A DNA stretch of 64,000 nucleotides, taken from the NCBI GenBank assembly GCA_000435515.1, contig FR884183.1:1980-65979 (forward strand). Reading direction: 5' to 3'. The stretch is from Firmicutes bacterium CAG:582 (lineage in GTDB: Bacteria; Bacillota_I; Bacilli_A; RF39; UBA660). The translations under genes were made by a program, and so were the position numbers. Position 1 is the first letter of the stretch; the number at the start of each line of letters is the position of its first letter. The notes under the pieces were generated by a model. It searched no databases. It saw nothing but the letters and a program-made list of their open reading frames with translations, and was not told where the DNA came from. Positions 4,090 through 47,007 of this stretch are shown in pieces.

Positions 4090-4292
4090 ATTTGTAAAGC
4101 GAAGATATGAGATTAGTAATAAATGATTTGTTTTAAAGAGAGTTTGTGGTTGGTGTAAACAAGCAATAAATATTTATGAATCTCCTCATTAGTGTTGTTA
4201 ATAGCAACCGGTGTTAGCCGTTATCTAAATTAAGTTAAAAGTAGGATGGTACCGCACATAAGTGCTCCTTTGTGTGGTATCATTTTTTTATT
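4090..4292 (+). promoter_or_regulatory. T-box riboswitch leader, probable Ser specifier (TCT at 4181-4183)
   Basis: AGAGAG box at about 4136-4141. Conserved T-box sequence aaaagtaggatggtaccgca at 4237-4256. Terminator arms taccgcaca (4250-4258) / tgtgtggta (4271-4279) followed by a T7 run (4283-4289). GAA-TCT-C in the specifier-loop position. Downstream operon contains serS. Confidence 0.8.
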
Positions 4293-4306: not shown

Positions 4307-5047
4307 ATGAGAAAACTTATTACTGATTCTTACTATTATAATAGTAGAAAATTTAATAATCGAGCAAGCCAACTGGGTTTTAATATTATTTATGTAACTA
4401 ACATTGATTTCTATAAAGATAAATATGTATGTGCAAGTTCGTTACCTAAAAATTTATTTGATTTAGTTGACTTATTTGACACAAGTAGAATAACTGATGA
4501 TAATAATTTACTTATCAGTTTTTCTAAAGAAGATTTAGAAAAAATAAGAGAGATGGATGATCAATATCTTAAGGCATCTGTTATAGTTCGAAGAGTGTTT
4601 GCAAATATTTTGGATAAAGCAGGGAATCCTTATATAGATCATTTGTATACAGTTTCTTTAAGCGAAGATTATATTTCTTCAGTTGCTGGATTATTACATG
4701 ATATTATAGAGGATACAAATATAACCGCTTTGGATTTATTAGAGGTTGGAATTGATAGGGATATAGTTGAAACTGTGTTTATTGTTACAAAACCTTTAAA
4801 AGAAAAGATAGAGCTAAGTGAGGAAGAAAGATTGCAATCTTATAATGTAGAAATAGATTCAATTATAAATAGTGGAAATCCACATGCTTTAAGATTAAAA
4901 ATGCGTGATATGAAAAATAATTATGATAAAAAAAGGTTAGAACTTTTATCTAGTGAACAACAGGAATGGCTTGGTAAAAAGTATGGTAATAATTTAAAAA
5001 AATTAGAAAAAGCATTAGAAAGTAGGAATAAAAATGATAGATATTAA
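4307..5047 (+). CDS. HD-domain protein, RelA/SpoT-type (p)ppGpp hydrolase-like (small alarmone hydrolase-like) with an N-terminal extension of about 90 aa
   Basis: Motif block KAGNPYIDHLYTVSL...VAGLLHDIIEDTNIT matches the SpoT hydrolase (HD_4) signature G-x-PY-x-x-H...LLHD-x-x-EDT. AGGAG RBS. Overlaps serS by 14 nt. Confidence 0.75.
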   Translation: MRKLITDSYYYNSRKFNNRASQLGFNIIYVTNIDFYKDKYVCASSLPKNLFDLVDLFDTSRITDDNNLLISFSKEDLEKIREMDDQYLKASVIVRRVFANILDKAGNPYIDHLYTVSLSEDYISSVAGLLHDIIEDTNITALDLLEVGIDRDIVETVFIVTKPLKEKIELSEEERLQSYNVEIDSIINSGNPHALRLKMRDMKNNYDKKRLELLSSEQQEWLGKKYGNNLKKLEKALESRNKNDRY

Positions 5048-14030: not shown

Positions 14031-14107
14031 GGATCTTTAGCTCAGTTGGTTAGAGCAACCGGCTCATAACCGGTCGGTCGTAGGTTCGAGTCCTACAAGA
14101 TCCACCA
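14031..14107 (+). tRNA. tRNA with CAT anticodon; probably tRNA-Ile2 (lysidine) rather than elongator Met
   Basis: Hand-folded cloverleaf. Acceptor GGATCTT/AAGATCC, D stem GCTC/GAGC, anticodon stem ACCGG/CCGGT with loop CTCATAA, T arm GTAGG-TTCGAGT-CCTAC, encoded CCA. The D and T arms closely resemble Bacillus tRNA-Ile(CAU). No initiator features are present. Confidence 0.92.
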
Positions 14108-14115
14108 TTTTTTGT

Positions 14116-14200
14116 GCAGGTATGGCGGAATTGGCAGACGCGCTAGACTTAGGATCTAGTGGAGTGATTCGTGCAGGTTCAAGTCCTGTTACCTGCACCA
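14116..14200 (+). tRNA. tRNA-Leu (anticodon TAG)
   Basis: Acceptor GCAGGTA/TACCTGC, anticodon stem CTAGA/TCTAG with loop CTTAGGA, long variable arm, T loop TTCAAGT, encoded CCA. Confidence 0.93.
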
Positions 14201-35737: not shown

Positions 35738-36725
35738 GATATGTTTTGGATGTGGTATAAAACTACAATCAACTGATAAGGAAAAACTTGGTTATGTGCC
35801 AGAAAAAAAGTTGGAATCATCAAAATATTGTATGCGTTGTTTTAGAATGATGCACTATGGAGAGGTAAGATTAGAAGAAACTCCTAAGGATAAAAAAGAA
35901 ATTATTAACAAAATCAATAAGGATAATAAGTTTGTAATATTCTTAGTAGACTTTTTAAATATAAATGATAATACAATGGATTTATATAAAAGTATAAAAC
36001 GCGATAAAATTCTTGTAATCAATAAGTGTGAGTTATTGCCTAAACATGTTAAACGTGAAAACATAAAAAAATTCATCATAGAATATTATCACGTTAATGG
36101 AGAGATAAGAATTAAAGGTGGTAATAATTCTCATGGAGCTACGTCTATTTTAAATTACTTAGAAAAAAATAATATAAAAGAAACTTATATAGTTGGAATG
36201 ACTAATGCTGGTAAAAGCACTTTAATAAATGATTTAATAAAGGCAACTAATACTGATATTTCTAAAATAAATGTAAACAATAAAAAGAATACGACTCTTG
36301 ATTTTATTCGTGTAAAATTGAATAATGGTCTTCTTTTAATTGATTCTCCAGGGATTGTTTTTGATGATTTTGTTTCATGTGATGTTGTTGATGATAATAT
36401 TGGAGCTTATAGTTTTAATATGAAATCAGGTGAAATTCTTTCTTTACTTGATGGAAAATATTATATAAAAGTAGATTCATCAACTCCAATAACTTTTTAT
36501 ACTAATCTAAATGCTAAAAATGTTGCTAAGAAAGTTTATAAAAGTTTTGATGATTTTGAATATTCAATAGAAGTTTTAGAAACTACAGATATAGTTATAA
36601 AGGGTATTGGTTTTATATCTATAAAAAATGGAACAAAAGTAAGTCTTAATGTAGATCCTAAATATATAGAAGTTAGAAAGAGTATTTTTGGAGGTATATA
36701 TGAAAATACAAGTAATGAGCGATGA
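35730..36725 (+). CDS. yqeH: ribosome biogenesis GTPase YqeH (circularly permuted)
   Basis: N-terminal zinc knuckle CFGCG...CMRCFRMMHYGE. G4 INKCELL precedes G1 GMTNAGKST. DSPG motif is present. Confidence 0.85.
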   Translation: MNKICFGCGIKLQSTDKEKLGYVPEKKLESSKYCMRCFRMMHYGEVRLEETPKDKKEIINKINKDNKFVIFLVDFLNINDNTMDLYKSIKRDKILVINKCELLPKHVKRENIKKFIIEYYHVNGEIRIKGGNNSHGATSILNYLEKNNIKETYIVGMTNAGKSTLINDLIKATNTDISKINVNNKKNTTLDFIRVKLNNGLLLIDSPGIVFDDFVSCDVVDDNIGAYSFNMKSGEILSLLDGKYYIKVDSSTPITFYTNLNAKNVAKKVYKSFDDFEYSIEVLETTDIVIKGIGFISIKNGTKVSLNVDPKYIEVRKSIFGGIYENTSNER

Positions 36726-38475
36726 TTTAGCTAATAAAATCGCAGCTGGAGAAGTTGTTGAGAGAATTTCATCAGTTGTTAAAGAATTAGTTGAAAATAG
36801 TATAGATGCTGGTAGTAAGACTATAATTGTTGATTTAGTTGAGAGTGGAACTAAACAAATTAAAGTAACTGATGATGGAAGTGGAATGGAACATGATGAT
36901 GCTCTTTTGTCATTTAAAAGACATGCTACAAGTAAGATAAAAAGAGAAGATGATTTGTTTTTCATTTCTACTTTAGGATTTCGTGGTGAGGCATTACCAA
37001 GTATTGCATCAGTTTCAAAAGTAGATCTTCGTACTTCGACTGGAGTGGGAGGAACACACATCGTTATTAATGGAGGGGCTTTAGTAACTGATGAGGCTTC
37101 TCAAGAAAAACGTGGAACAACTATAAGTGTTAATGATTTGTTTTATAATACGCCCGCTAGATTAAAATATTTAAAAAGTGATATTACAGAACTTTCTAAT
37201 GTAACTACATATATTGAAAAATTAGCATTAAGTCATCCAAATATTTCTTTTACTTTAACTAATAATGATAAAAGAATAGTATTTACTTCAGGTAGTTCAG
37301 ATCTTCTTAAAACGATTCATGAAATTTATGGGTATCAAGTTAGTTCTAATATGCTTTATTTTAAATCTAATAATGATGATTATGATATTTATGGTTTTAT
37401 TTGTAAACCTAGTATTTTAAAAAGTAATAGAAACCATATGACAACTATCGTTAATGGTAGATGTGTTAGAAATGCAGAAGTTAATGCAGCTATAAATGAT
37501 GGATATCATACTTTTAAGCCGGATATAAAGTATCCTGTTGTAGTAATGATGATTGATACTGATCCTACTCTTATAGATGTTAATATTCATCCAACAAAGC
37601 AAGATATTAAATTTTCAAAAATTGAAGGACTTAAAACCCTTATTACCGAAACGGTTAATTCCACTTTAAAAAAGGCTCTTTTAATACCAAAGATAGATAC
37701 ATATGAATATCAAGAAATAAATGAGTATCCAACAATATCAGATGTTGAAAAGATAGAAACTGAAGAGATTCAATTTGATTTTAAAACGACTCCAAAAGAA
37801 GATGTTACTAAAGAATCTACTTTTGAGGATATTAAAGAAATAGTAGATGAAACTAAAAATCCTGCTTTAGTTGAAAACGAACAAATAAAAAAAGAAGAAC
37901 TATATGCTGTTGGAATTGTTTTAGGAACTTATATAATAGCTCAAAATGAGAAGGGAATGTATTTAATTGATCAACATGCAGCACAAGAGAGAATTAATTA
38001 TGAGCGTGTTTTAAGAGGCCTTGAAAGTGCAACTATTTATACAACGCCTTTACTTCTTCCAATTCCAATTGAACTTACGACATCAGAATTTTTAAAGATA
38101 AAAGAAAATATTAACGTATTAAATGATTTGGGCTTTAAAATAGAAGAATTTGGTATAAATACGTTTGTAGTTAAAGAACATCCTACATGGTTGATAAATG
38201 GATTAGAAACGGAAAGTATTAGACGTATTTTTGATATTATAATTGAAGGTAAGAATATGTTTGATCGTGTTAAATTCCATGATCATATAGCAGCAACAAT
38301 GGCTTGCAAGATGAGTGTTAAGGGTAATGAAGCAATAACGCTTGAGCAGGCTCAAAAGCTATTAGATGATTTAGTTTTGTGTAATAATCCATATAATTGT
38401 CCACATGGTAGACCAACGATAATTACATTTACACGTTATGAACTTGAAAGAATGTTTAAAAGGGTTATGAATTAG
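36700..38475 (+). CDS. mutL: DNA mismatch repair protein MutL
   Basis: MKIQVMSDDLANKIAAGEVVERISSVVKELVENSIDAG, GFRGEALPSIASVS, C-terminal QHAAQERINYE and CPHGRP endonuclease motifs. ATG 36700 is preferred; it overlaps yqeH by 26 nt. Confidence 0.93.
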   Translation: MKIQVMSDDLANKIAAGEVVERISSVVKELVENSIDAGSKTIIVDLVESGTKQIKVTDDGSGMEHDDALLSFKRHATSKIKREDDLFFISTLGFRGEALPSIASVSKVDLRTSTGVGGTHIVINGGALVTDEASQEKRGTTISVNDLFYNTPARLKYLKSDITELSNVTTYIEKLALSHPNISFTLTNNDKRIVFTSGSSDLLKTIHEIYGYQVSSNMLYFKSNNDDYDIYGFICKPSILKSNRNHMTTIVNGRCVRNAEVNAAINDGYHTFKPDIKYPVVVMMIDTDPTLIDVNIHPTKQDIKFSKIEGLKTLITETVNSTLKKALLIPKIDTYEYQEINEYPTISDVEKIETEEIQFDFKTTPKEDVTKESTFEDIKEIVDETKNPALVENEQIKKEELYAVGIVLGTYIIAQNEKGMYLIDQHAAQERINYERVLRGLESATIYTTPLLLPIPIELTTSEFLKIKENINVLNDLGFKIEEFGINTFVVKEHPTWLINGLETESIRRIFDIIIEGKNMFDRVKFHDHIAATMACKMSVKGNEAITLEQAQKLLDDLVLCNNPYNCPHGRPTIITFTRYELERMFKRVMN

Positions 38476-38483
38476 GTGATTTT

Positions 38484-39338
38484 ATGAAGAAAAAAATATT
38501 TATTGGTGTTATTATTGTTCTTGTTGTTTTTACTTCCATATTTGTTATTTTTACTCTTGGTAAAAAGGATGGAAAAACAATTATTCCCGTTTCTAGTAGT
38601 AGCACTTCATCAACTTCAATTGAGACAAGTGAAGTTATAACTGAGACAACTCCTCCAGCAACTGAAGAGGTATCTACAGCATTAACAACAAAAACTTTAG
38701 AAACAACTAAGAAAACTACTACTAAAAAACAAACAACGACACTTGATTATAAGATTGTAAAGGAAATAAAAACTGTGGAATACACAAAATATGGAACCGT
38801 AATAAAGGAAAACTATGAAGTTTCTTATAAAGTATATAACGATGGAAGAAAAGAAGAGAAATCTAAAAAGAAAAAAAGTACGAATATTGATTCTACTAAT
38901 TATAAAGCAACTACAGATGATCTAAAAGAAGAAGCATTAACGGTGAGAAGTTCTAATAGAAGCGCATATAATGAAATGCTTTCTTATGTTAATAAGTATC
39001 GAAGTGAGGTTAATGTATCTTTGTTATCTATGGATGATGATCTAAACTTGGCAGCCACAATTCGAGCTATCGAAATGGCTTACTCTAAAAAGTTTTCTCA
39101 TTTTCGACCAGATGGGAATATGTGCTATAGTGTCATAGGAGATCTAGATATTTCAGCTAGATCTTTAGGAGAAAATGTGGCATATGGTCAAAAAACTGCT
39201 GCTGCTGTGAGTGAAGTTTGGAAAAATTCTACTTCAGGTCATTATGAAAATATGGTAAATGCGATGTTTACGAGAGTAGGCTTTGGAAAGTTTACTTTAA
39301 ATGGGAAAACTTATTGGGTTCAAATGTTTGCTGGATAA
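38484..39338 (+). CDS. CAP/SCP (PR-1-like) domain protein with N-terminal TM anchor and Ser/Thr-rich linker
   Basis: TM helix, S/T-rich stretch, C-terminal CAP blocks (FSHFRPDG, GENVAYG, SGHYENM, YWVQMF). Confidence 0.8.
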   Translation: MKKKIFIGVIIVLVVFTSIFVIFTLGKKDGKTIIPVSSSSTSSTSIETSEVITETTPPATEEVSTALTTKTLETTKKTTTKKQTTTLDYKIVKEIKTVEYTKYGTVIKENYEVSYKVYNDGRKEEKSKKKKSTNIDSTNYKATTDDLKEEALTVRSSNRSAYNEMLSYVNKYRSEVNVSLLSMDDDLNLAATIRAIEMAYSKKFSHFRPDGNMCYSVIGDLDISARSLGENVAYGQKTAAAVSEVWKNSTSGHYENMVNAMFTRVGFGKFTLNGKTYWVQMFAG

Positions 39339-39364
39339 TATTCTCTTTTTGAGAATATTTTTTC
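39337..39364 (+). terminator. rho-independent terminator
   Basis: Stem aatattctc / gagaatatt (39337-39345 / 39351-39359) followed by a T-run. Confidence 0.7.
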
Positions 39365-39393
39365 TTGCAATAAAGTGGGTTTTTAATTATAAT
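39365..39393 (+). promoter_or_regulatory. sigma-A promoter (TTGCAA-17-TATAAT) for the three-paralog unit
   Basis: ttgcaa at 39365-39370 and tataat at 39388-39393. GGAGG RBS at 39410-39414 before ATG 39421. Confidence 0.65.
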
Positions 39394-39420
39394 ATTTTCT
39401 ACGTTGAGTGGAGGCTATGT

Positions 39421-40194
39421 ATGAAAATACTTATATTTGTTTTGGAATTTCTTTTATATTTTATGAGACGTGCAAGACTTTCAAGAATTTTAGTTAACAA
39501 GGGATATTTTTATAAACCTTTTTCAATATTTAAAAGAAAGCCTTTAGTAAGTGTATCAATTATGCTTCTTTATGGTTTATCGGCCCAATTTCCTTTATGT
39601 TTCATTGTTTTTACAGAAATTCTATTTTATTCAGCTAAAAGAAAAATTGAAAACGATATTGATTCTTTAAAGCCTTATCTTAGACCTATGAGTGATGAGG
39701 AAAAAGATTTTTATGATAATGTACAAAATACAAAGAGTCATGAAGAATTTAAGGGATTACTTGAAAGCGAATTATTTCATAATATAAGCAGTGTTGATAA
39801 TGATTTAGATAAAAAGAGTCTAAGAAAATATAAAACTCGCCTTCTTCCGCTTGCTTATACTTTAGAGGAAGTAGAATACATAAGTGAGAAACTTAATGTT
39901 TCTTACACACTTGCAACTGATGGATGTGTTAATATGGCGTTTGTTGGAATGGATGAAAAGAATAATTTTAAAAGCTATGTTAATGGCGAAAATAAAATAT
40001 TTAATATAATAAATTCTGAAGATGCTAAAAACTCTACATTTGTTATTTTTACATCTTGCGATGAAAAAGATGTTGATTGTTTGGTTGAAAATATTAGAAT
40101 CATGAGAAAAAATAAGCGTGCCTGTTCAATTGAAATGGATATAAATACTTACGAAGCTTCATCAAAAGACAAAAAATTGGAAAGAAAGTTATAA
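39421..40194 (+). CDS. hypothetical membrane protein, paralog 1 of 3
   Basis: Shares architecture and motifs with the next two ORFs: N-terminal TM helix, basic R-x-x-R-I-x-x-(N/K)KG(Y/F), a second hydrophobic segment, the conserved block LPLAYTLEEVEYISEKLNVSYTLA...AFVG, and a terminal KKLERKL. The track start 39301 lies upstream of the terminator and promoter and is therefore rejected. Confidence 0.6.
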   Translation: MKILIFVLEFLLYFMRRARLSRILVNKGYFYKPFSIFKRKPLVSVSIMLLYGLSAQFPLCFIVFTEILFYSAKRKIENDIDSLKPYLRPMSDEEKDFYDNVQNTKSHEEFKGLLESELFHNISSVDNDLDKKSLRKYKTRLLPLAYTLEEVEYISEKLNVSYTLATDGCVNMAFVGMDEKNNFKSYVNGENKIFNIINSEDAKNSTFVIFTSCDEKDVDCLVENIRIMRKNKRACSIEMDINTYEASSKDKKLERKL

Positions 40195-40195
40195 T

Positions 40196-40999
40196 ATGTA
40201 TGTTTTAGAATTTATTTTACTATATATAATTTCTACAATAGTAACTAGTCGAATATATAATGAACTTATTCGTAAAATCTCTTATAGAGTTAAGTTTAGC
40301 TTTGCTAAAAAGGGGTATCTTTTAAACTGTGATCCAATAATTGATAAAAAGAAAAGAACCTATGTTGGTTTACTTGCGCTTATATCTAAACTTTTTAAAT
40401 ATGTTCCTTTTGTTAATATATTAGGAGCCTTAATTCTTACTCAAGAAACCATTAAAACATATGAGTCAGGTAAGATTCTAGATAAAGACAAGTTTTATTT
40501 ATCAGAAGAAAGTAGAAATAAATTTATAAAAAGTAATAATTTTTTAGAAAAAAGTGTTATTATCGATGTAGCAACTGTGGATATGGGTATAATGTATTTT
40601 GCATCTCAATTTAAAACATCAGTTATAGTAAATGGGATTTTATCATTAAATGGTCAACTATGTCCACTTGCTTATACATTAGATGAAATAAGACTTATGG
40701 CAAAATATTTAAATACTTCGTTTACTTTGGGAAAAATAAATGGAGTTTCGGTTGCTTTAATTGGAGCTAGAATATTTAGAAATATTAAGACTTTTGATAA
40801 TGATATTTATGAAATTATTAATGATTTTAAAACTGATGCTTCTTTTAAAGTTTATTTAATCGATGAAGAAAGTTTAACTGATAAAGATATTGATGCTTTA
40901 ATTTTGATGATTAGAGAAAATAGATATAAGCAAAGAAATAAAAAGGCTAATAATGATTATTCCTTAAATAAAGAATTTAAATTAGAAAAGAGAATATAA
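40196..40999 (+). CDS. hypothetical membrane protein, paralog 2 of 3
   Basis: CPLAYTLDEIRLMAKYLNTSFTLGKINGVSVALIG, FKVYLIDEESLTDKDIDALILMIRENR, terminal KLEKRI. Starts 1 nt after paralog 1. Confidence 0.6.
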   Translation: MYVLEFILLYIISTIVTSRIYNELIRKISYRVKFSFAKKGYLLNCDPIIDKKKRTYVGLLALISKLFKYVPFVNILGALILTQETIKTYESGKILDKDKFYLSEESRNKFIKSNNFLEKSVIIDVATVDMGIMYFASQFKTSVIVNGILSLNGQLCPLAYTLDEIRLMAKYLNTSFTLGKINGVSVALIGARIFRNIKTFDNDIYEIINDFKTDASFKVYLIDEESLTDKDIDALILMIRENRYKQRNKKANNDYSLNKEFKLEKRI

Positions 41000-41000
41000 A

Positions 41001-41816
41001 ATGACTTTTTTTGTAATAATGTTTTTTATATATGTGTTTTTTACGTACGAAACCCTTAAAATGCAGGATGCTTTGTTAAGTTTAATGAATTATCGGATTG
41101 CAAGAATATTTGCAAAGCAAGGTTTTATACTGAAAAGAGGTAAACATTTAAATAATAAAGAACAAAGATATTTTGATATGTTTTTTATGATTGGTGATGT
41201 TATTAAATTTATACCATTTATTAATGTTGTTTATACTGTTGTTTTTTCAAATATAGTGATAAAAAAGGTTACTCAAAAAAAATATCAAGAAAGCGAAAAG
41301 AGATATTTAACTAGTGAAGAGAAAAATAGCATAATAAATGCTAAAACTAAGTATGATTTAATTGAAGCAATAGATTTGATTCGTTTAAAAGATATAAAAG
41401 AAGAGTATTTTAACTCTTTTCTTACTTCACATATTTCATGTGGAAAAATTTATTTGAATGGAAAACTTCCGAATTTGGCATATAAGTTATCCGAAATTGA
41501 AAAAATGGCATTAATGTTGGATAAGCCTTTTACAATTGGTAAAATAGGAGATGATTATGTAGCTTTTATAGGTAGCAATTTTAAAAATCCGATAAATATT
41601 CATCCTGATAATAAGTTGTTTGTTCCCATGAAAGAAATAGATGATAGTAGTAGATTTGAAGTATACTTAATAAATTTAGAAGATTTGTCTGATGAAGAAA
41701 AGAATCAAGTAGTTGAAATAATAAAAAAAGAGAGAATTGTAGAACTATCCGATTCTGAACCCAATTTAAAAGGCTTTGAATCAACAAAAGATAGAAAGTT
41801 AGAATTAATGCGTTAA
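41001..41816 (+). CDS. hypothetical membrane protein, paralog 3 of 3
   Basis: PNLAYKLSEIEKMALMLDKPFTIGKIGDDYVAFIG, FEVYLINLEDLSDEEKNQVVEIIKKER, terminal RKLELMR. Starts 1 nt after paralog 2. Confidence 0.6.
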   Translation: MTFFVIMFFIYVFFTYETLKMQDALLSLMNYRIARIFAKQGFILKRGKHLNNKEQRYFDMFFMIGDVIKFIPFINVVYTVVFSNIVIKKVTQKKYQESEKRYLTSEEKNSIINAKTKYDLIEAIDLIRLKDIKEEYFNSFLTSHISCGKIYLNGKLPNLAYKLSEIEKMALMLDKPFTIGKIGDDYVAFIGSNFKNPINIHPDNKLFVPMKEIDDSSRFEVYLINLEDLSDEEKNQVVEIIKKERIVELSDSEPNLKGFESTKDRKLELMR

Positions 41817-41863
41817 AACGTTAATTTTTTTATGTATATTTTTGTAAAATAATAAAAAACAGA

Positions 41864-41930
41864 TTGATTGAAGTGACATTTTAGTGTATATTATATGTAG
41901 ACAGTGGCAGAAAGTGGAAGAAAGTGGGGG
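41864..41930 (+). promoter_or_regulatory. dcw-cluster promoter (TTGATT-17-TATATT) followed by three MraZ-box-like direct repeats
   Basis: ttgatt at 41864-41869 and tatatt at 41887-41892. GTGG repeats at 41904, 41914 and 41924 have exact 10-bp periodicity (GTGGcagaaa GTGGaagaaa GTGGgggaaa), immediately upstream of mraZ. Confidence 0.6.
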
Positions 41931-41936
41931 AAATTT

Positions 41937-42380
41937 ATGTTGATGGGTGAATATCATCACAATATTGATGATAAAAATCGACTAGTTCTTCCGAGTAAAT
42001 TTAGAAACGAATTAGGAGATAAAATCATTATTACTCGTGGACTAGATAAATGCTTATTCGTCTATTCGACCAGCGAATGGCAAAAAATTGTCGACAAATT
42101 AAAAACTTTACCATTTACACATAAAGACGCTCGTGACTTTGTTCGATTTTTCTTATCTGGCGCTATCGAAGCTGAATTTGACCGTAGTGGAAGAATCAGC
42201 ATTACCTCCCCATTGATCGGATATGCCGGTATTACACGTGAATGTGTCATTATCGGCGCAAACGATCGACTAGAAATTTGGGATAATGATTCATGGAATA
42301 ATTTCCTAAATGAAAATGATGAAAGATTTGCAAGTATAGCAGAAAATTTATTTACTACAGGTGATTATAATGCATTATAG
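41937..42380 (+). CDS. mraZ: transcriptional regulator MraZ
   Basis: MLMGEYHHNIDDKNRLVLPSKFR... with duplicated SpoVT-AbrB halves (DxxGR motifs DDKNRLVLP and DRSGRISI). ATG 41937 is preferred over track start 41904. Confidence 0.93.
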   Translation: MLMGEYHHNIDDKNRLVLPSKFRNELGDKIIITRGLDKCLFVYSTSEWQKIVDKLKTLPFTHKDARDFVRFFLSGAIEAEFDRSGRISITSPLIGYAGITRECVIIGANDRLEIWDNDSWNNFLNENDERFASIAENLFTTGDYNAL

Positions 42381-43596: not shown

Positions 43597-45777
43597 ATGA
43601 AATATACGAACAATACAATTAAAATCAATTTTGTTTTTATAATTTGTATTGTTCTTTTATTTGTGCTTTTTTTTGTAAAACTTGCTTATGTGGCAACAAA
43701 TGACGTCGTAGAAGGCTCTAATTTGAAAGAAATTGCTGAAGCTAGAAGTACAACAACTAAAACTCTTTATGCAACACGTGGTAATATTTATGATAACGCT
43801 AATAATCTTTTAGCTCAAAATGTTAATTCTTATACTTTAATTGCCTATCTTTCTTCTAGTAGAACTACTGATGAAAGATATCCAAAACATGTTGTAGATA
43901 AAGAAACTACAGCACGAAAACTATCAGAAGTATTAGAACCTATCAATAAGACAATGACCTATGAATATATTTTTAAAAGGTTAAACGTAGAAAATAAGTA
44001 TCAAGTCGAATTTGGATCTGGTGGTAAAAATTTAAGTGAACTTGATAAACAAAAAATTGAAGAACTTGATCTTCCTGGTATCGCGTTTGTTAAATCATCT
44101 AAGAGATATTATCAAAATGGTAATTTTGCTTCATATTTAATCGGTTATGCCAAAAAAAATGAAGAAACTGATGAGATGACTGGAGAACTTGGAATCGAAA
44201 AATTTTGTGATAGGTATTTAAAAGGAAAAGATGGAAGTATTACATATCAACATGATGCTTATGGTTATCAAATGGCTGATAAAGTAAGCCAAAATACACC
44301 AGCCGAGGATGGGTATGATGTTTATCTTACGTTGGATAAACAAGTTCAAATATTTCTTGATAATGCTGTATCAGAATTTGGAACTTATAATCCTTCTTGG
44401 GTAACTATAACAGTTGCTGATGCTAAAACAGGTGCAATTATTGGTTCTTCAACTTCACCTAGTTTTGACCCAAATAAACTTGATTTACAAAACTATAACG
44501 ATCCGCTTATTTCCTATACATATGAACCTGGAAGTACAATGAAAATATTTTCTTTTGCATCAGCTATAGAAGAGGGATTATATAAAGGCGATGAATTATA
44601 TAAGTCAGGTACAGTAGAAGTGGCTGATTATAAAATTAAGGATTGGAATAAAGTTGGTTGGGGAAATATTACTTATGATGTAGGATTCACGTATTCATCT
44701 AACGTTGCGGCAGTTAATTTATCAAAACTATTAAAAAAACAAGGGTTAACTAAATATTATTCTAATTTAGGATTTGGTGAAAAAACTGGTATTGAACTTG
44801 CAAACGAATATAAGGGTGATATCAATTTTGAATATGAAACTGAAGTGGCCTCTGCTTCCTATGGACAAGGTATAACAATAACTCCAATTCAAATGATTCA
44901 AGCCCTTACTACCTTAACAAATGATGGAACTGTTATGAAACCATATATTATTGATAAAATTGTTGATCCAAATAAAAATGAAGTGGTTTATCAAGGTGGT
45001 AAGAAAGAACTTAATAAAGTGTATTCGACATCAACCGTTAATAAAGTTAAAGAACTTATGGATTTAACTGTTAATGGAGCGGATACCGGTGCAACTGGAC
45101 GTGTATATCATACGGATTCAGTTAGACTTATTGGTAAAACTGGTACAGCTAACTATACAAATGGTACTGGTAGTTATGTTGTAGGAAATTACAATGTAAT
45201 AAAATCATTCGCGGGAATATTTCCGAAAGATGATCCAGAATATATTTTATATGTAGCTGTAAAAGATTTTCATGGTACTAGTAAAAATATGGGAACAATT
45301 ATCAAAAAGATGGTTGAAAGTGTTGCTAAATATAAAAACCTTGATACTAGAGTAAGCGATAAAGATGCAAGCAAAATAGTTGATATTGACTCATATGTTA
45401 ATAAAACAGTAACTGCTGCTATATCCTCTTTACAAAGCAAGGGAATAACTCCTTTGATTATCGGTGATGGAAGTCGCGTTATAAAACAATACCCTGAAGC
45501 GGGTGTGAAAACAAGTCAAAGTTCGAAAGTTTTTTTGCTTACAAATAGTAAGAATATAACGATGCCTGATATTAGTGGATGGAGTGAAAGTGAAGTTATT
45601 AATTTTTGTAATTTAGTTAATCTTAAATATAGTTTTAATAACTATGGTTATGTAGAAAACTCAAACATTCCGGCTGGGACAGTGCTTGATACTTTAAATA
45701 TGACACTTGAAGTTAATTTTCAAAATATAAATCCAAATACATATTCAAAAAAGAAAGAGGAGGAGAAAAATGAATAA
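43597..45777 (+). CDS. class B penicillin-binding protein (PBP2B/FtsI/SpoVD type) with two C-terminal PASTA domains
   Basis: TM anchor, dimerisation domain, SxxK GSTMK, SxN YSSN, KTG GKTGTA, then two PASTA-like repeats. Confidence 0.92.
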   Translation: MKYTNNTIKINFVFIICIVLLFVLFFVKLAYVATNDVVEGSNLKEIAEARSTTTKTLYATRGNIYDNANNLLAQNVNSYTLIAYLSSSRTTDERYPKHVVDKETTARKLSEVLEPINKTMTYEYIFKRLNVENKYQVEFGSGGKNLSELDKQKIEELDLPGIAFVKSSKRYYQNGNFASYLIGYAKKNEETDEMTGELGIEKFCDRYLKGKDGSITYQHDAYGYQMADKVSQNTPAEDGYDVYLTLDKQVQIFLDNAVSEFGTYNPSWVTITVADAKTGAIIGSSTSPSFDPNKLDLQNYNDPLISYTYEPGSTMKIFSFASAIEEGLYKGDELYKSGTVEVADYKIKDWNKVGWGNITYDVGFTYSSNVAAVNLSKLLKKQGLTKYYSNLGFGEKTGIELANEYKGDINFEYETEVASASYGQGITITPIQMIQALTTLTNDGTVMKPYIIDKIVDPNKNEVVYQGGKKELNKVYSTSTVNKVKELMDLTVNGADTGATGRVYHTDSVRLIGKTGTANYTNGTGSYVVGNYNVIKSFAGIFPKDDPEYILYVAVKDFHGTSKNMGTIIKKMVESVAKYKNLDTRVSDKDASKIVDIDSYVNKTVTAAISSLQSKGITPLIIGDGSRVIKQYPEAGVKTSQSSKVFLLTNSKNITMPDISGWSESEVINFCNLVNLKYSFNNYGYVENSNIPAGTVLDTLNMTLEVNFQNINPNTYSKKKEEEKNE

Positions 45778-46288
45778 AGTTAAAGAATTTTTTAATAGTC
45801 CTAAAATTATAATAGTAACCTTAATAGTTTTACTTGCTATAAGTGTTTTAGTTATATATAAGCTTAGTACTTCAAGTAAAATTTATATATCTTCTGTAAA
45901 TAATGATGATGTTAGTATTTCGACTATTCATGCTTTTATCAATAATGATATGCATATGTTTTATTCAACTCCTGCTACTTTTAATAATGATGATTATAAA
46001 ATCTATGGAATAACGGCAGGATATTATGTAAAAAATGGAAATGAGTATATGGAATTTTTAACTCAAAGTGATGACTTTTCATCTGCTGAATCATTGACTA
46101 AAACTTTGGAATTCTATAGTGCTTTTAATTATATTGAAAGCAATAATAAACATGATAAGTTTAATGAAACTGTTAAGAAAAACTTTGAAGATAATTTATA
46201 TTTTATAGTTAAAGTAAAAAAGGAAAAAACAAGTAGTTTAGAAACAATTTATGAAAGAAAAATAGAAATGAAAAAAATAACTAAATAA
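45770..46288 (+). CDS. hypothetical membrane-anchored protein
   Basis: 172 aa with an N-terminal TM helix. Overlaps the PBP stop by 8 nt and has a GGAGGAG RBS. Confidence 0.5.
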   Translation: MNKVKEFFNSPKIIIVTLIVLLAISVLVIYKLSTSSKIYISSVNNDDVSISTIHAFINNDMHMFYSTPATFNNDDYKIYGITAGYYVKNGNEYMEFLTQSDDFSSAESLTKTLEFYSAFNYIESNNKHDKFNETVKKNFEDNLYFIVKVKKEKTSSLETIYERKIEMKKITK

Positions 46289-46353
46289 AAGTTATATGAT
46301 ACTTGTTAGTAATTCTTATTTATGATAGTATAGATATTCAAGGAGATGAATGT

Positions 46354-46896
46354 ATGAAAATTATTAGAAATGGTGTAGCTTATATACAAGTTCTTGATTT
46401 TCAAAGACTTTTAGAAAAAGAAAAGTTTGAAATTTTAACTAGTGAAGTCTTTCCTATATTATTTAGGGAAGCAAGCAAGGATTCTGATATGTTCATTATA
46501 TGTAAAGATAACGAAAATGATTTTATTGAATTTAGAAATCCTAAATCAGTTGAATTTTTAACCAGTTTTGAAGAAATTGTTGATTATGATGAAATAAAAG
46601 ATTTAAGTTATGAAGAAATGGATGCATTGAGAGTATGTATTATTAATGAAAAGAACGAAATAGCATCTAAAGTAAATATGATGTCAGCGGAAGAGCAAAA
46701 ACAACATCCAGAGTTATTTGAAAGGTATAATACACTTTCTTCAAAGTTTATGTCACTTAATGATGTTTATTGGTTTAAACGTGGAAAAGTTAAACTAGTT
46801 CTTCCAGATGATGAAAAAGAGTTAAAACCAATCTCGTTTGGTGATGAAATTAAGCTACGTCTAAAAAATGCTTTTAATAGAAAAAATAACAAATAA
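46354..46896 (+). CDS. hypothetical protein
   Basis: ATG 46354 is preceded by an AAGGAG RBS (track start TTG 46303 is less likely). 180 aa with no recognisable motif. Confidence 0.5.
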   Translation: MKIIRNGVAYIQVLDFQRLLEKEKFEILTSEVFPILFREASKDSDMFIICKDNENDFIEFRNPKSVEFLTSFEEIVDYDEIKDLSYEEMDALRVCIINEKNEIASKVNMMSAEEQKQHPELFERYNTLSSKFMSLNDVYWFKRGKVKLVLPDDEKELKPISFGDEIKLRLKNAFNRKNNK

Positions 46897-46930: not shown

Positions 46931-47007
46931 TGGTGACCCGTACGGGATTTGAACCCATGAATGCATGCGTGAAAGGCATGTGTGTTAAACCACTTCACCA
47001 ACGGGCC
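46931..47007 (-). tRNA. tRNA-Glu (anticodon TTC)
   Basis: The reverse complement folds as a cloverleaf. Acceptor GGCCCGT/ACGGGTC, anticodon stem CATGC/GCATG with loop CTTTCAC, T arm ATGGG-TTCAAAT-CCCGT, encoded CCA. A TTGACA-18-TATTAT promoter lies on the - strand at 47018-47047. Confidence 0.9.

Follow-up and report, generated by a model that had tools for sequence, protein, structure and literature searches.

Three genes for small membrane proteins, standing one directly behind the other 5' of mraZ and next to the dcw cluster of division and cell-wall genes, raise the question of what such a triplet might do and whether its position says anything about its role. The genes are found in a stretch of 64,000 nucleotides (nt) from Firmicutes bacterium CAG:582 (GenBank assembly GCA_000435515.1, contig FR884183.1, positions 1,980 to 65,979 of the forward strand), henceforth called the window, whose G+C content (GC) is 27%. 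For such uncultured, very low-GC gut Bacilli almost nothing is, to our knowledge, established experimentally. A previous inspection of this DNA, made without database searches and referred to here as the original prediction, described the genes as a self-contained transcription unit of diverged paralogs lacking any known domain. It overlooked their most distinctive trait, namely an extreme evolutionary rate together with the replacement of alleles within a species; the fast evolution of the triplet compared to its flanks and this allele replacement we regard as the main new result of the present analysis.

All genes between mutL (36688-38475) and mraZ are located on the plus strand. A gene encoding a CAP/YkwD-domain protein is followed by ORF1 (39421-40194; 257 amino acids, aa), ORF2 (40196-40999; 267 aa) and ORF3 (41001-41816; 271 aa), and at both junctions of the triplet 1 nt separates the stop codon from the next ATG, a spacing found throughout the multi-copy relatives, as in the loci L001, L005 and L017. 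ORF1 begins with an ATG preceded at a distance of 6 nt by a putative Shine-Dalgarno motif, GGAGG (39410-39414, plus strand), read from the sequence; a G-rich block is kept at this site in relatives as well. A mechanical call which lets ORF1 start at 39301 is an over-extension because its homologs measure 257 aa, and about 30 near-identical ones are of exactly this length. The coordinates, lengths and single-nucleotide gaps given previously are thus correct, and the proposed paralogy of the three proteins is borne out by BLASTP, which aligns ORF2 with ORF3 at E = 3e-32 (31% identity over 238 aa) and ORF1 with ORF2 in the C-terminal domain only (E = 2e-12; 37% identity over 101 aa) and with ORF3 at E = 1e-5. 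In agreement with the high nucleotide divergence noted before, likeness at the DNA level is limited to one 28-nt stretch (86%) coding for the PLAYTL motif. No further copy of the family or remote paralog is found in the window, not even among the unassigned membrane proteins encoded around dcw.

Rapid evolution and replacement of alleles

Comparison of the window with L001, the corresponding locus of a related species, reveals amino-acid identities of 97% for MutL, 99% for MraZ, 95% for RsmH, 97% for FtsL and 95% for PBP2B versus 64% for ORF1, 48% for ORF2 and 62% for ORF3. The synonymous divergence (dS) is similar in the triplet and in the flanking genes (0.5-0.8), while the ratio of nonsynonymous to synonymous divergence (dN/dS or omega) amounts to 0.41-0.49 in the three ORFs and to 0.02-0.14 in the flanks. 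Since dS equals that of the flanks while dN/dS is far higher, the triplet has diverged in place and fast, with protein evolution about 10 times faster than in the flanking housekeeping genes; a cassette swap as the origin of the divergence between species is rejected on account of the equal dS. For ORF1, the dN/dS values obtained span 0.41-0.50. Compared to L017, dN/dS of the three ORFs reaches 0.6-0.87. Along the genes, sliding-window omega is as low as 0.1-0.3 in a central hairpin and in the core of the C-terminal domain; values of about 1 or higher are confined to linker, first helix and tail, a pattern that fits relaxed constraint. In 27 near-identical variants of ORF1, the polymorphic amino acids occupy scattered positions.

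Within the species, nucleotide identity of loci L034, L035 and L038-L043 to the window amounts to 97-100% in mutL, the CAP gene, ORF1, mraZ, rsmH, ftsL and pbp2B. L034 carries window-type alleles. In L035 and L038-L043, a tract corresponding to approximately 40200-41500 (plus strand), which extends over the whole of ORF2 and into ORF3, taking up about its first 60%, is divergent with a nucleotide identity of roughly 70% (62-80% in L035, with 91-100% on either side). The ORF2 of these loci is a 281-aa allele identical to the database sequence P0003 and shares 57% protein identity with that of the window, which is itself 97% identical to P0001. Each of the two classes is common among database sequences, with 94 member sequences for P0001 and 400 for P0003, and the clusters of P0001, P0003, P0009 and P0011 comprise hundreds of sequences. 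Between the ORF2 alleles dS amounts to 0.79, a value as found between species, versus 0.11 in the adjoining ORF1. ORF3 is a mosaic when compared to L035 and to L038, the latter harbouring, within a segment that is foreign otherwise, one block resembling the window. Hence, deeply divergent allele classes with sharp boundaries occur in one species, as would be expected of a polymorphic locus. As for selection that might maintain the alleles, pairwise and sliding-window omega lies at 0.3-0.6, with values near or above 1 confined to linkers and tails. Judged from these alignments, the tract in ORF2 and ORF3 is a real replacement, homologous recombination of old and divergent alleles having reshuffled the genes between strains, and that the locus is hypervariable and recombining we consider secure at this level of evidence. 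The data fit either of two origins of the alleles, long maintenance as separate classes or, at a locus that evolves fast, import from sister species not yet sampled.

In pherotype loci, such as comQXP of Bacillus and agrBDC of staphylococci, the divergent tract consists of one whole gene and the N-terminal part of the next, while the flanks are near-identical. The tract in the window resembles this situation in that ORF2 and the membrane-proximal part of ORF3 exist in deeply divergent alleles with sharp bounds and near-identical flanks. In contrast to pherotype loci, however, the triplet contains no histidine kinase, peptide precursor or isoprenyl transferase, shows no homology to them and may reflect plain introgression. 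With neighbours at 95-100% identity versus 48-64% between species and 57% between strains, the locus is among the most variable points of a conserved region, and hypervariable points of a chromosome usually show where a bacterium meets phages, competitors or its host. If the variation is adaptive, the locus would constitute a natural strain marker and an entry point to the biology of these organisms; if relaxed constraint holds true, it would be an ordinary lineage-specific family without assigned function.

Copy number, synteny and origin of the triplet

The slot between mutL and mraZ differs in content among close relatives. The CAP gene plus three copies is found in the window, L001-L006 and L034-L043, the CAP gene plus two copies in L017, an unrelated gene for a 274-aa protein plus one copy in L015, and one copy alone in L012-L014. 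The 274-aa neighbour in L015 was considered as a second copy and rejected, as it is an unrelated protein. In L017, some 550-600 nt (4460-5005) containing only ORFs of less than 50 aa separate the CAP gene from the first family member; this stretch may be the remains of a gene or an extended leader. The clades of ORF1, ORF2 and ORF3 form one group versus the rest of the family in a neighbour-joining tree, in which ORF1 splits first and ORF3 is the sister paralog of ORF2. Orthologs specific to each of the paralogs are found in three or more species-level backgrounds, in keeping with the original view that the triplication is old and has been maintained.

The more distant members of the family are single-copy and have unrelated neighbours, namely Abi_2 and pheST, a SpaA-domain protein and bacA, or gmk, a lipoprotein gene and likely cdaA. 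In L020 the family gene adjoins mgtE, with murC, a gene for a penicillin-binding protein (PBP) and a YoeB/Phd pair nearby, the last about 4 kb away. Cell-wall genes within 8 kb, seen in several contexts independent of one another, are murC (L020 and L024), the PBP gene (L020) and the undecaprenyl-diphosphatase gene bacA (L021). Since these distant members are single-copy and differ in their neighbours, the array is a local expansion and not a trait of the family, and the triplet is a lineage-specific tandem expansion from one via two to three copies. The question raised previously, whether the family always occurs in multi-copy arrays, is thereby answered in the negative, considering the two copies in L017, the one in L012 and L015 and the single-copy state of the wider family; single-copy homologs with unrelated neighbours, which had been named as a finding that would speak against a special array, do exist in the wider family, so that this objection applies in part.

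A distant clade has the family gene immediately 3' of an abortive-infection gene of the Abi_2/AbiD type (L007, 4962-5891; L009, 687-1616; PHROG 2158, E = 6e-74). This clade also features a gene for a 986-aa protein with a CW_7 repeat upstream as well as pheS and pheT downstream, and no phage structural matches are found among its neighbours.

A family outside the curated libraries

Word-indexed searches retrieved about 50 close homologs falling into three ortholog groups. An exhaustive HMMER search of 1.84 billion representatives extended this set to 109 clusters at E <= 1e-3, 41 of them at E <= 1e-10; nearly all are 260-310 aa long and match over their full length. 107 out of 114 family sequences form one BLAST-connected component, and all loci which carry the family have a GC of 23-29%. 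A scan of a genome collection with an alignment as query yielded two metagenome-assembled genomes of uncultured Bacilli from Hadza gut samples, and none with a single protein as query. As far as these searches reach, the family seems confined to very low-GC uncultured Bacilli. The sources examined attach no protein name to its members, and a literature search for a described gene 5' of mraZ brought up nothing relevant.

The only Pfam-A match of the three proteins is TerC with E = 0.048 and 13.8 bits versus a cut-off of 27.8, and 54 diverse members of the family produced nothing but stray Pfam matches, each in one member. NCBIfam contains no match for the three proteins and gave one stray hit among the 54 members. 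No defence-protein model of PADLOC-DB 2.0 matches any of the three at E <= 1, and PHROGs v4 returned matches only at E >= 0.06, to families of unknown function. A tblastn search of 50,697 phage records detected no homolog, nor is one present among the viral contigs of IMG/VR or on plasmids, and a prophage or mobile origin of the triplet is rejected on these grounds. Sequence profiles of PDB entries, searched with two alignments, gave best E values of 0.21-0.75 and nothing significant. Foldseek, run versus the PDB with full-length and domain models, found 0 matches at E <= 0.001 with a best probability of 0.25, and versus BFVD the full-length model obtained no match at E <= 0.001 either. The claim that no known domain is recognisable therefore holds for Pfam, NCBIfam, PHROGs, PADLOC, PDB profiles and Foldseek searches of PDB and BFVD, and an assignment to a known domain by profile searches, which would have spoken against the original prediction, did not occur. 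Lying outside all searched curated libraries and solved structures, the family is a new protein family; relative to these libraries, solved structures and BFVD, with the AlphaFold DB outside the comparison, we rate it as categorically new on the sequence and model evidence. As its structure is confidently predicted and has neither a detectable solved relative nor an entry in the curated libraries searched, the family lends itself cleanly to being defined as a new domain.

Predicted structure and membrane topology

AlphaFold2 models the full-length ORF2 protein with a pLDDT of 85.5 and a pTM of 0.61, and its residues 138-252 as a separate domain with a pLDDT of 92.0 and a pTM of 0.82. Common to the three proteins is a hydrophobic N-terminal helix followed by a K/R-rich loop containing a KGY motif, a helix-Pro-x-x-Asn-helix hairpin, two linker helices and a C-terminal alpha/beta domain. 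The latter is composed of two hairpins, a helix, five strands and a long helix, after which a disordered stretch leads to a short conserved basic tail; in ORF1 this tail reads KLERKL and the linker is long. Throughout the family the first helix is hydrophobic, often with a Glu, G40 and Y41 of the KGY motif are almost invariant, and Pro71 and Asn74 are present in 99% and 94% of the members, respectively. Further conserved motifs are an L.PMT..EK..Y helix, L.PLAYTL.EVK.LN, Y..G...G.N.AIIG, F.VYP, I...R and the terminal basic tail of the P.L.K type. The motifs put forward in the original prediction are essentially right, yet slightly off in register, the correct form of the central block being (L/C/P)(P/N)LAY(T/K)L.E(V/I), and ORF1, unlike the basic motif given there, lacks the extra K/Q ahead of G(Y/F). 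Within the domain, conservation mostly concerns the hydrophobic core, plus Y160, T161, E164, N185 and R243; these residues look structural and not catalytic.

Mean hydropathy of the first helix is 1.74, and the loop next to it contains 7 K/R in 36 aa. Around the invariant proline the uncharged stretch has a median length of 17 aa, split into 7 + 9. DSSP assigns short strands to residues 41-43/48 and 93/99-101 of the ORF2 model, which must pair together, as no other partners are possible, and thereby close the base of the hairpin. With this base closed, the KGY loop and the C-terminal domain are expected on the same side of the membrane, and the positive-inside rule identifies this side as the cytoplasm. 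In place of the second hydrophobic segment followed by a soluble domain that had been described before, a short helix-Pro-helix hairpin is thus the better description of this region, the C-terminal domain itself being retained. According to the model, this second hydrophobic element is probably re-entrant and not a full second span, and the C-terminal domains are probably cytoplasmic.

The highest-ranking Foldseek matches of the domain are the RbpA core domain and small barrels of the Hfq/Sm-like type, which likewise combine a short helix, bent beta strands and a long helix. However, with E values of 0.4-6, probabilities of at most 0.25, TM-scores of at most 0.35 and rmsd values of up to 18 A, none of them represents a credible fold match.

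The triplet as a transcription unit

Immediately upstream of the triplet, an intrinsic-terminator-like hairpin with T-run is located at 39337-39366 (plus strand; AATATTCTC/GAGAATATT, loop TTTTT). Its stem of 9 bp (39337-39345/39351-39359) begins within the stop codon of the CAP gene and is followed by the T-run. Including five extra flanking pairs, the 46-nt segment 39330-39375 folds with a dG of -13.4 kcal/mol (z = -4.9 versus shuffled sequences), and the hairpin is conserved, its stem in L005 showing one compensatory change from A-T to G-C. A simple terminator scan missed it because that scan demands 3 G-C pairs. Overlapping the end of the T-run, a sigma-A-type promoter, TTGCAA-17-TATAAT, is predicted at 39365-39393 (plus strand) from a consensus scan and from its invariance in relatives. 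Consensus matches as such occur at chance level in the AT-rich window (27 found versus 27.9 expected); yet both hexamers and their spacing are invariant in the window, L001, L002 and L005, even though identity of the genes downstream is no higher than 48-64%. The leader of ORF1 (39339-39420; -10 hexamer to start codon) displays, within the species, 85-88% nucleotide identity versus 97-99% in the coding flanks.

At the opposite end, a weak hairpin (core TTAATG/CGTTAA) with a run of seven T (41801-41831, plus strand) harbours the ORF3 stop codon in its loop and is likely the 3' end of the unit. With a dG of -5.4 it falls at the weak end of the range of its relatives, and neither the simple terminator scan nor a longer fold picked it up. 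A hairpin with 7-8 T follows the last paralog in six relatives, among them L001, L005, L017, L012 and L015, with stems of differing sequence and dG values from -5.3 to -11.5. Flanked by hairpin terminators, provided with a conserved promoter and followed by mraZ with a promoter and operator of its own, the three ORFs form their own transcription unit, and we regard it as secure, as far as sequence features can tell, that this operon lies 5' of the dcw operon and is insulated from it. The clean upstream terminator, the promoter and the self-contained unit postulated in the original prediction are all supported by these features.

Possible roles of the triplet

That the genes are real and constrained follows from a dN/dS of 0.3-0.6, and thus below 1, from about 100 full-length clusters of 260-310 aa and from the confident AlphaFold2 models. 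An accessory, non-essential role in the envelope or as a membrane scaffold appears most likely. As a working picture, to which we assign somewhat less than an even chance, the three proteins would constitute an accessory membrane-tethered hetero-oligomer of binding domains which is translationally coupled and under weak constraint. The N-terminal helix would span the membrane with its N-terminus outside and the Pro-kinked hairpin would dip into the inner leaflet, so that the KGY loop and the C-terminal domain would both be cytoplasmic. Tight gene spacing would lead to translational coupling and roughly equimolar synthesis, and the paralogs would associate via their membrane segments. The alpha/beta domains, which are presumably not enzymes as no catalytic-type motif is conserved, would act together with the C-terminal tails as docking modules for a partner. 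The high rate would reflect purifying selection that is weak everywhere but in the hairpin and the core of the domain, the other parts possibly being subject to diversifying selection, and the position beside the division cluster would be inherited synteny and not co-regulation. The constant core position, the absence from mobile elements, the missing defence signature and an omega below 1 with a conserved core argue for this hetero-oligomer. Several observations weigh against it. Hetero-oligomerisation is deduced solely from paralogy and gene spacing, and the topology from a model summary (the DSSP string) and charge counts, while the KKKR in front of the second hydrophobic segment resembles a signal anchor and would fit two spans with an extracellular C-terminal domain. 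The fold comparison covered PDB and BFVD and may have missed a known fold among the predicted cellular proteins of the AlphaFold DB. Proximity to cell-wall genes is statistically unconvincing, as chance would, roughly estimated, produce it at about 28% of loci, and alleles of 57% identity within a species, like the copy-number changes between close relatives, typify loci of conflict or recognition more than scaffolds.

A locus of that kind, serving phage defence (as a membrane effector like those of abortive infection, its sensor domain in the cytoplasm), toxin immunity or strain recognition, would keep divergent alleles by diversifying or balancing selection and exchange ORF2 and the N-terminal part of ORF3 together as a matched pair. 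This would explain the 48-64% amino-acid identity versus 95-99% in the flanks at equal dS, the presence of at least two ORF2 allele classes in the species (57% identity; dS 0.79 versus 0.11 in ORF1), the ORF3 mosaic and the variation between one and three copies among close relatives. The conserved polar Glu, Asn and Pro in the membrane segments would suit a membrane-active effector, and an Abi_2 neighbour in one distant clade, a weak HNH match beside another and the YoeB/Phd pair about 4 kb away in L020 point in the same direction. Known membrane effectors of the Abi and other defence systems are likewise small, membrane-anchored, equipped with a cytoplasmic domain, rapidly evolving and variable in copy number, and Abi_2 adjoins the family gene in L007 and L009; the family differs from them in having no PADLOC or PHROGs match, a constant core position and no occurrence on phages, viral contigs or plasmids. 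We nevertheless consider a conflict locus doubtful, since, apart from these missing matches and homologs, the gene is found in every examined relative at one slot of the core genome, whereas defence genes are usually patchy, since overall omega is below 1, with values near 1 restricted to linkers and tails as expected under relaxed constraint, and since the divergent allele could be a simple import from an unsampled sister species. Unlikely, in our estimation, is that the operon represents a new strain-specific membrane module with a fold unseen in solved structures, in which ORF2 would co-evolve as a matched pair with the membrane-proximal part of ORF3, their ancient alleles being kept by balancing or diversifying selection, and which would function in phage interaction, immunity or self/non-self recognition. 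Similarly improbable appear surface-exposed envelope proteins, whose second hydrophobic segment would be a signal-anchor span and whose C-terminal domains would lie outside, beside the CAP protein, under pressure from phages or host immunity. Such allelic diversity is typical of exposed antigens and phage receptors, K/R residues are clustered just ahead of the second hydrophobic segment, the net charge of the C-terminal domain is acidic (-4.7), and the CAP protein and p197, a product of a gene 3' of pbp2B, both probable envelope proteins, evolve fast as well (dN/dS 0.21-0.29). Yet the uncharged stretch measures only 17 aa in the median and is split by the invariant Pro, the segment after the hairpin is not depleted of K/R (2.8 in 16 aa), in the model the loop ahead of the hairpin is paired with the stretch behind it, so that both lie on one side, and the domain core and hairpin are most conserved while the linkers are most variable, with no surface patch standing out.

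A dedicated function in the divisome or in cell-wall synthesis, coupled to MraZ, RsmH, FtsL and PBP2B, is suggested by the presence of at least one family member directly 5' of mraZ in all close relatives and by murC, a PBP gene or bacA near some distant members. We deem it highly improbable. The synteny carries little functional weight because the genomes are closely related anyway (MutL 83-97% identical), and the linkage to dcw, far from being conserved across the family, is seen in the closest clade only, the distant members not being beside dcw. From sequence alone, the unit lies 5' of the mraZ promoter and its GTGG boxes, separated from them by a hairpin with T-run, and dcw is provided with a separate conserved promoter and with the MraZ operator. 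The evolutionary rate exceeds that of FtsL, PBP2B and MraZ by an order of magnitude, and Foldseek detects no similarity to any solved division protein. Of the suspicion that the location by the division cluster may be meaningful, the position beside mraZ thus stands, whereas a division role is not supported by an insulated unit with rates unlike those of FtsL and PBP2B; the link of the triplet to dcw seems to be one of position. In its architecture, the hetero-oligomer favoured above would resemble ZipA and EzrA by analogy, sharing an N-terminal helix with the N-terminus outside, cytoplasmic linkers, helical or disordered, and a globular C-terminal docking domain near division genes, features which in the triplet are deduced from the model. 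It differs from them in the absence of sequence or structure similarity (no ZipA or EzrA chain is among the top 50 Foldseek matches listed from the PDB, none of which has E <= 0.001), in its additional Pro-kinked hairpin and KGY loop, in its far faster evolution and in its tandem paralogs.

The mraZ boundary and neighbouring genes

Outside the unit, a putative mraZ promoter, TTGATT-17-TATATT, is located at 41864-41892 and the MraZ operator, made up of three GTGG boxes with 6-nt spacers, at 41904-41927 (both plus strand). The region 41864-41940 is nearly invariant in six relatives, and the array of three boxes occurs nowhere else in the window, with 0 occurrences expected by chance. The boxes agree with the published consensus of the MraZ operator (PMC12957436). 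The longest possible mraZ ORF, starting from a GTG at 41904, passes through the boxes, and the true start is almost certainly, to judge from this arrangement, the ATG at 41937 (MLMGEYHH...).

The separate gene upstream of the triplet (38484-39338, plus strand) codes for a Thr/Ser-rich CAP/YkwD-domain protein (Pfam CAP, E = 1.1e-18) which is membrane-anchored via its N-terminus, the anchor being followed by the Thr/Ser-rich linker. It is 76% identical to its L001 ortholog versus 97% for MutL, its dN/dS ranges from 0.21 to 0.29, and the relatives with one copy, L012 and L015, lack its gene. An identification as the divisome lipoprotein DalA was rejected, the NCBIfam score being 38.6 bits versus a cut-off of 200; the weak match is due to the shared CAP domain only, DalA being an alphaproteobacterial outer-membrane lipoprotein.

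Downstream, a 172-aa membrane-anchored protein without Pfam match is encoded at 45770-46288, overlapping the end of pbp2B; with 65-100% identity in all relatives it may be a lineage-specific member of the dcw cluster. The 197-aa protein p197 (46303-46896), which has no Pfam match, evolves fast (61-69% identity; dN/dS 0.28). A homolog of it (E = 1.6e-19) is encoded at 5668-6483 of L024, at a distance of 1.8 kb from the single family member of this otherwise unrelated locus and near murC. The dcw cluster of the window is truncated in that it ends after pbp2B and two small genes, with no mur or fts genes thereafter, and a lone tRNA-Glu gene follows on the minus strand at 46931-47007. Elsewhere in the window, a T-box leader (4093-4272) precedes an ORF at 4307, and a pair of tRNA-Met and tRNA-Leu genes is present at 14031-14200.

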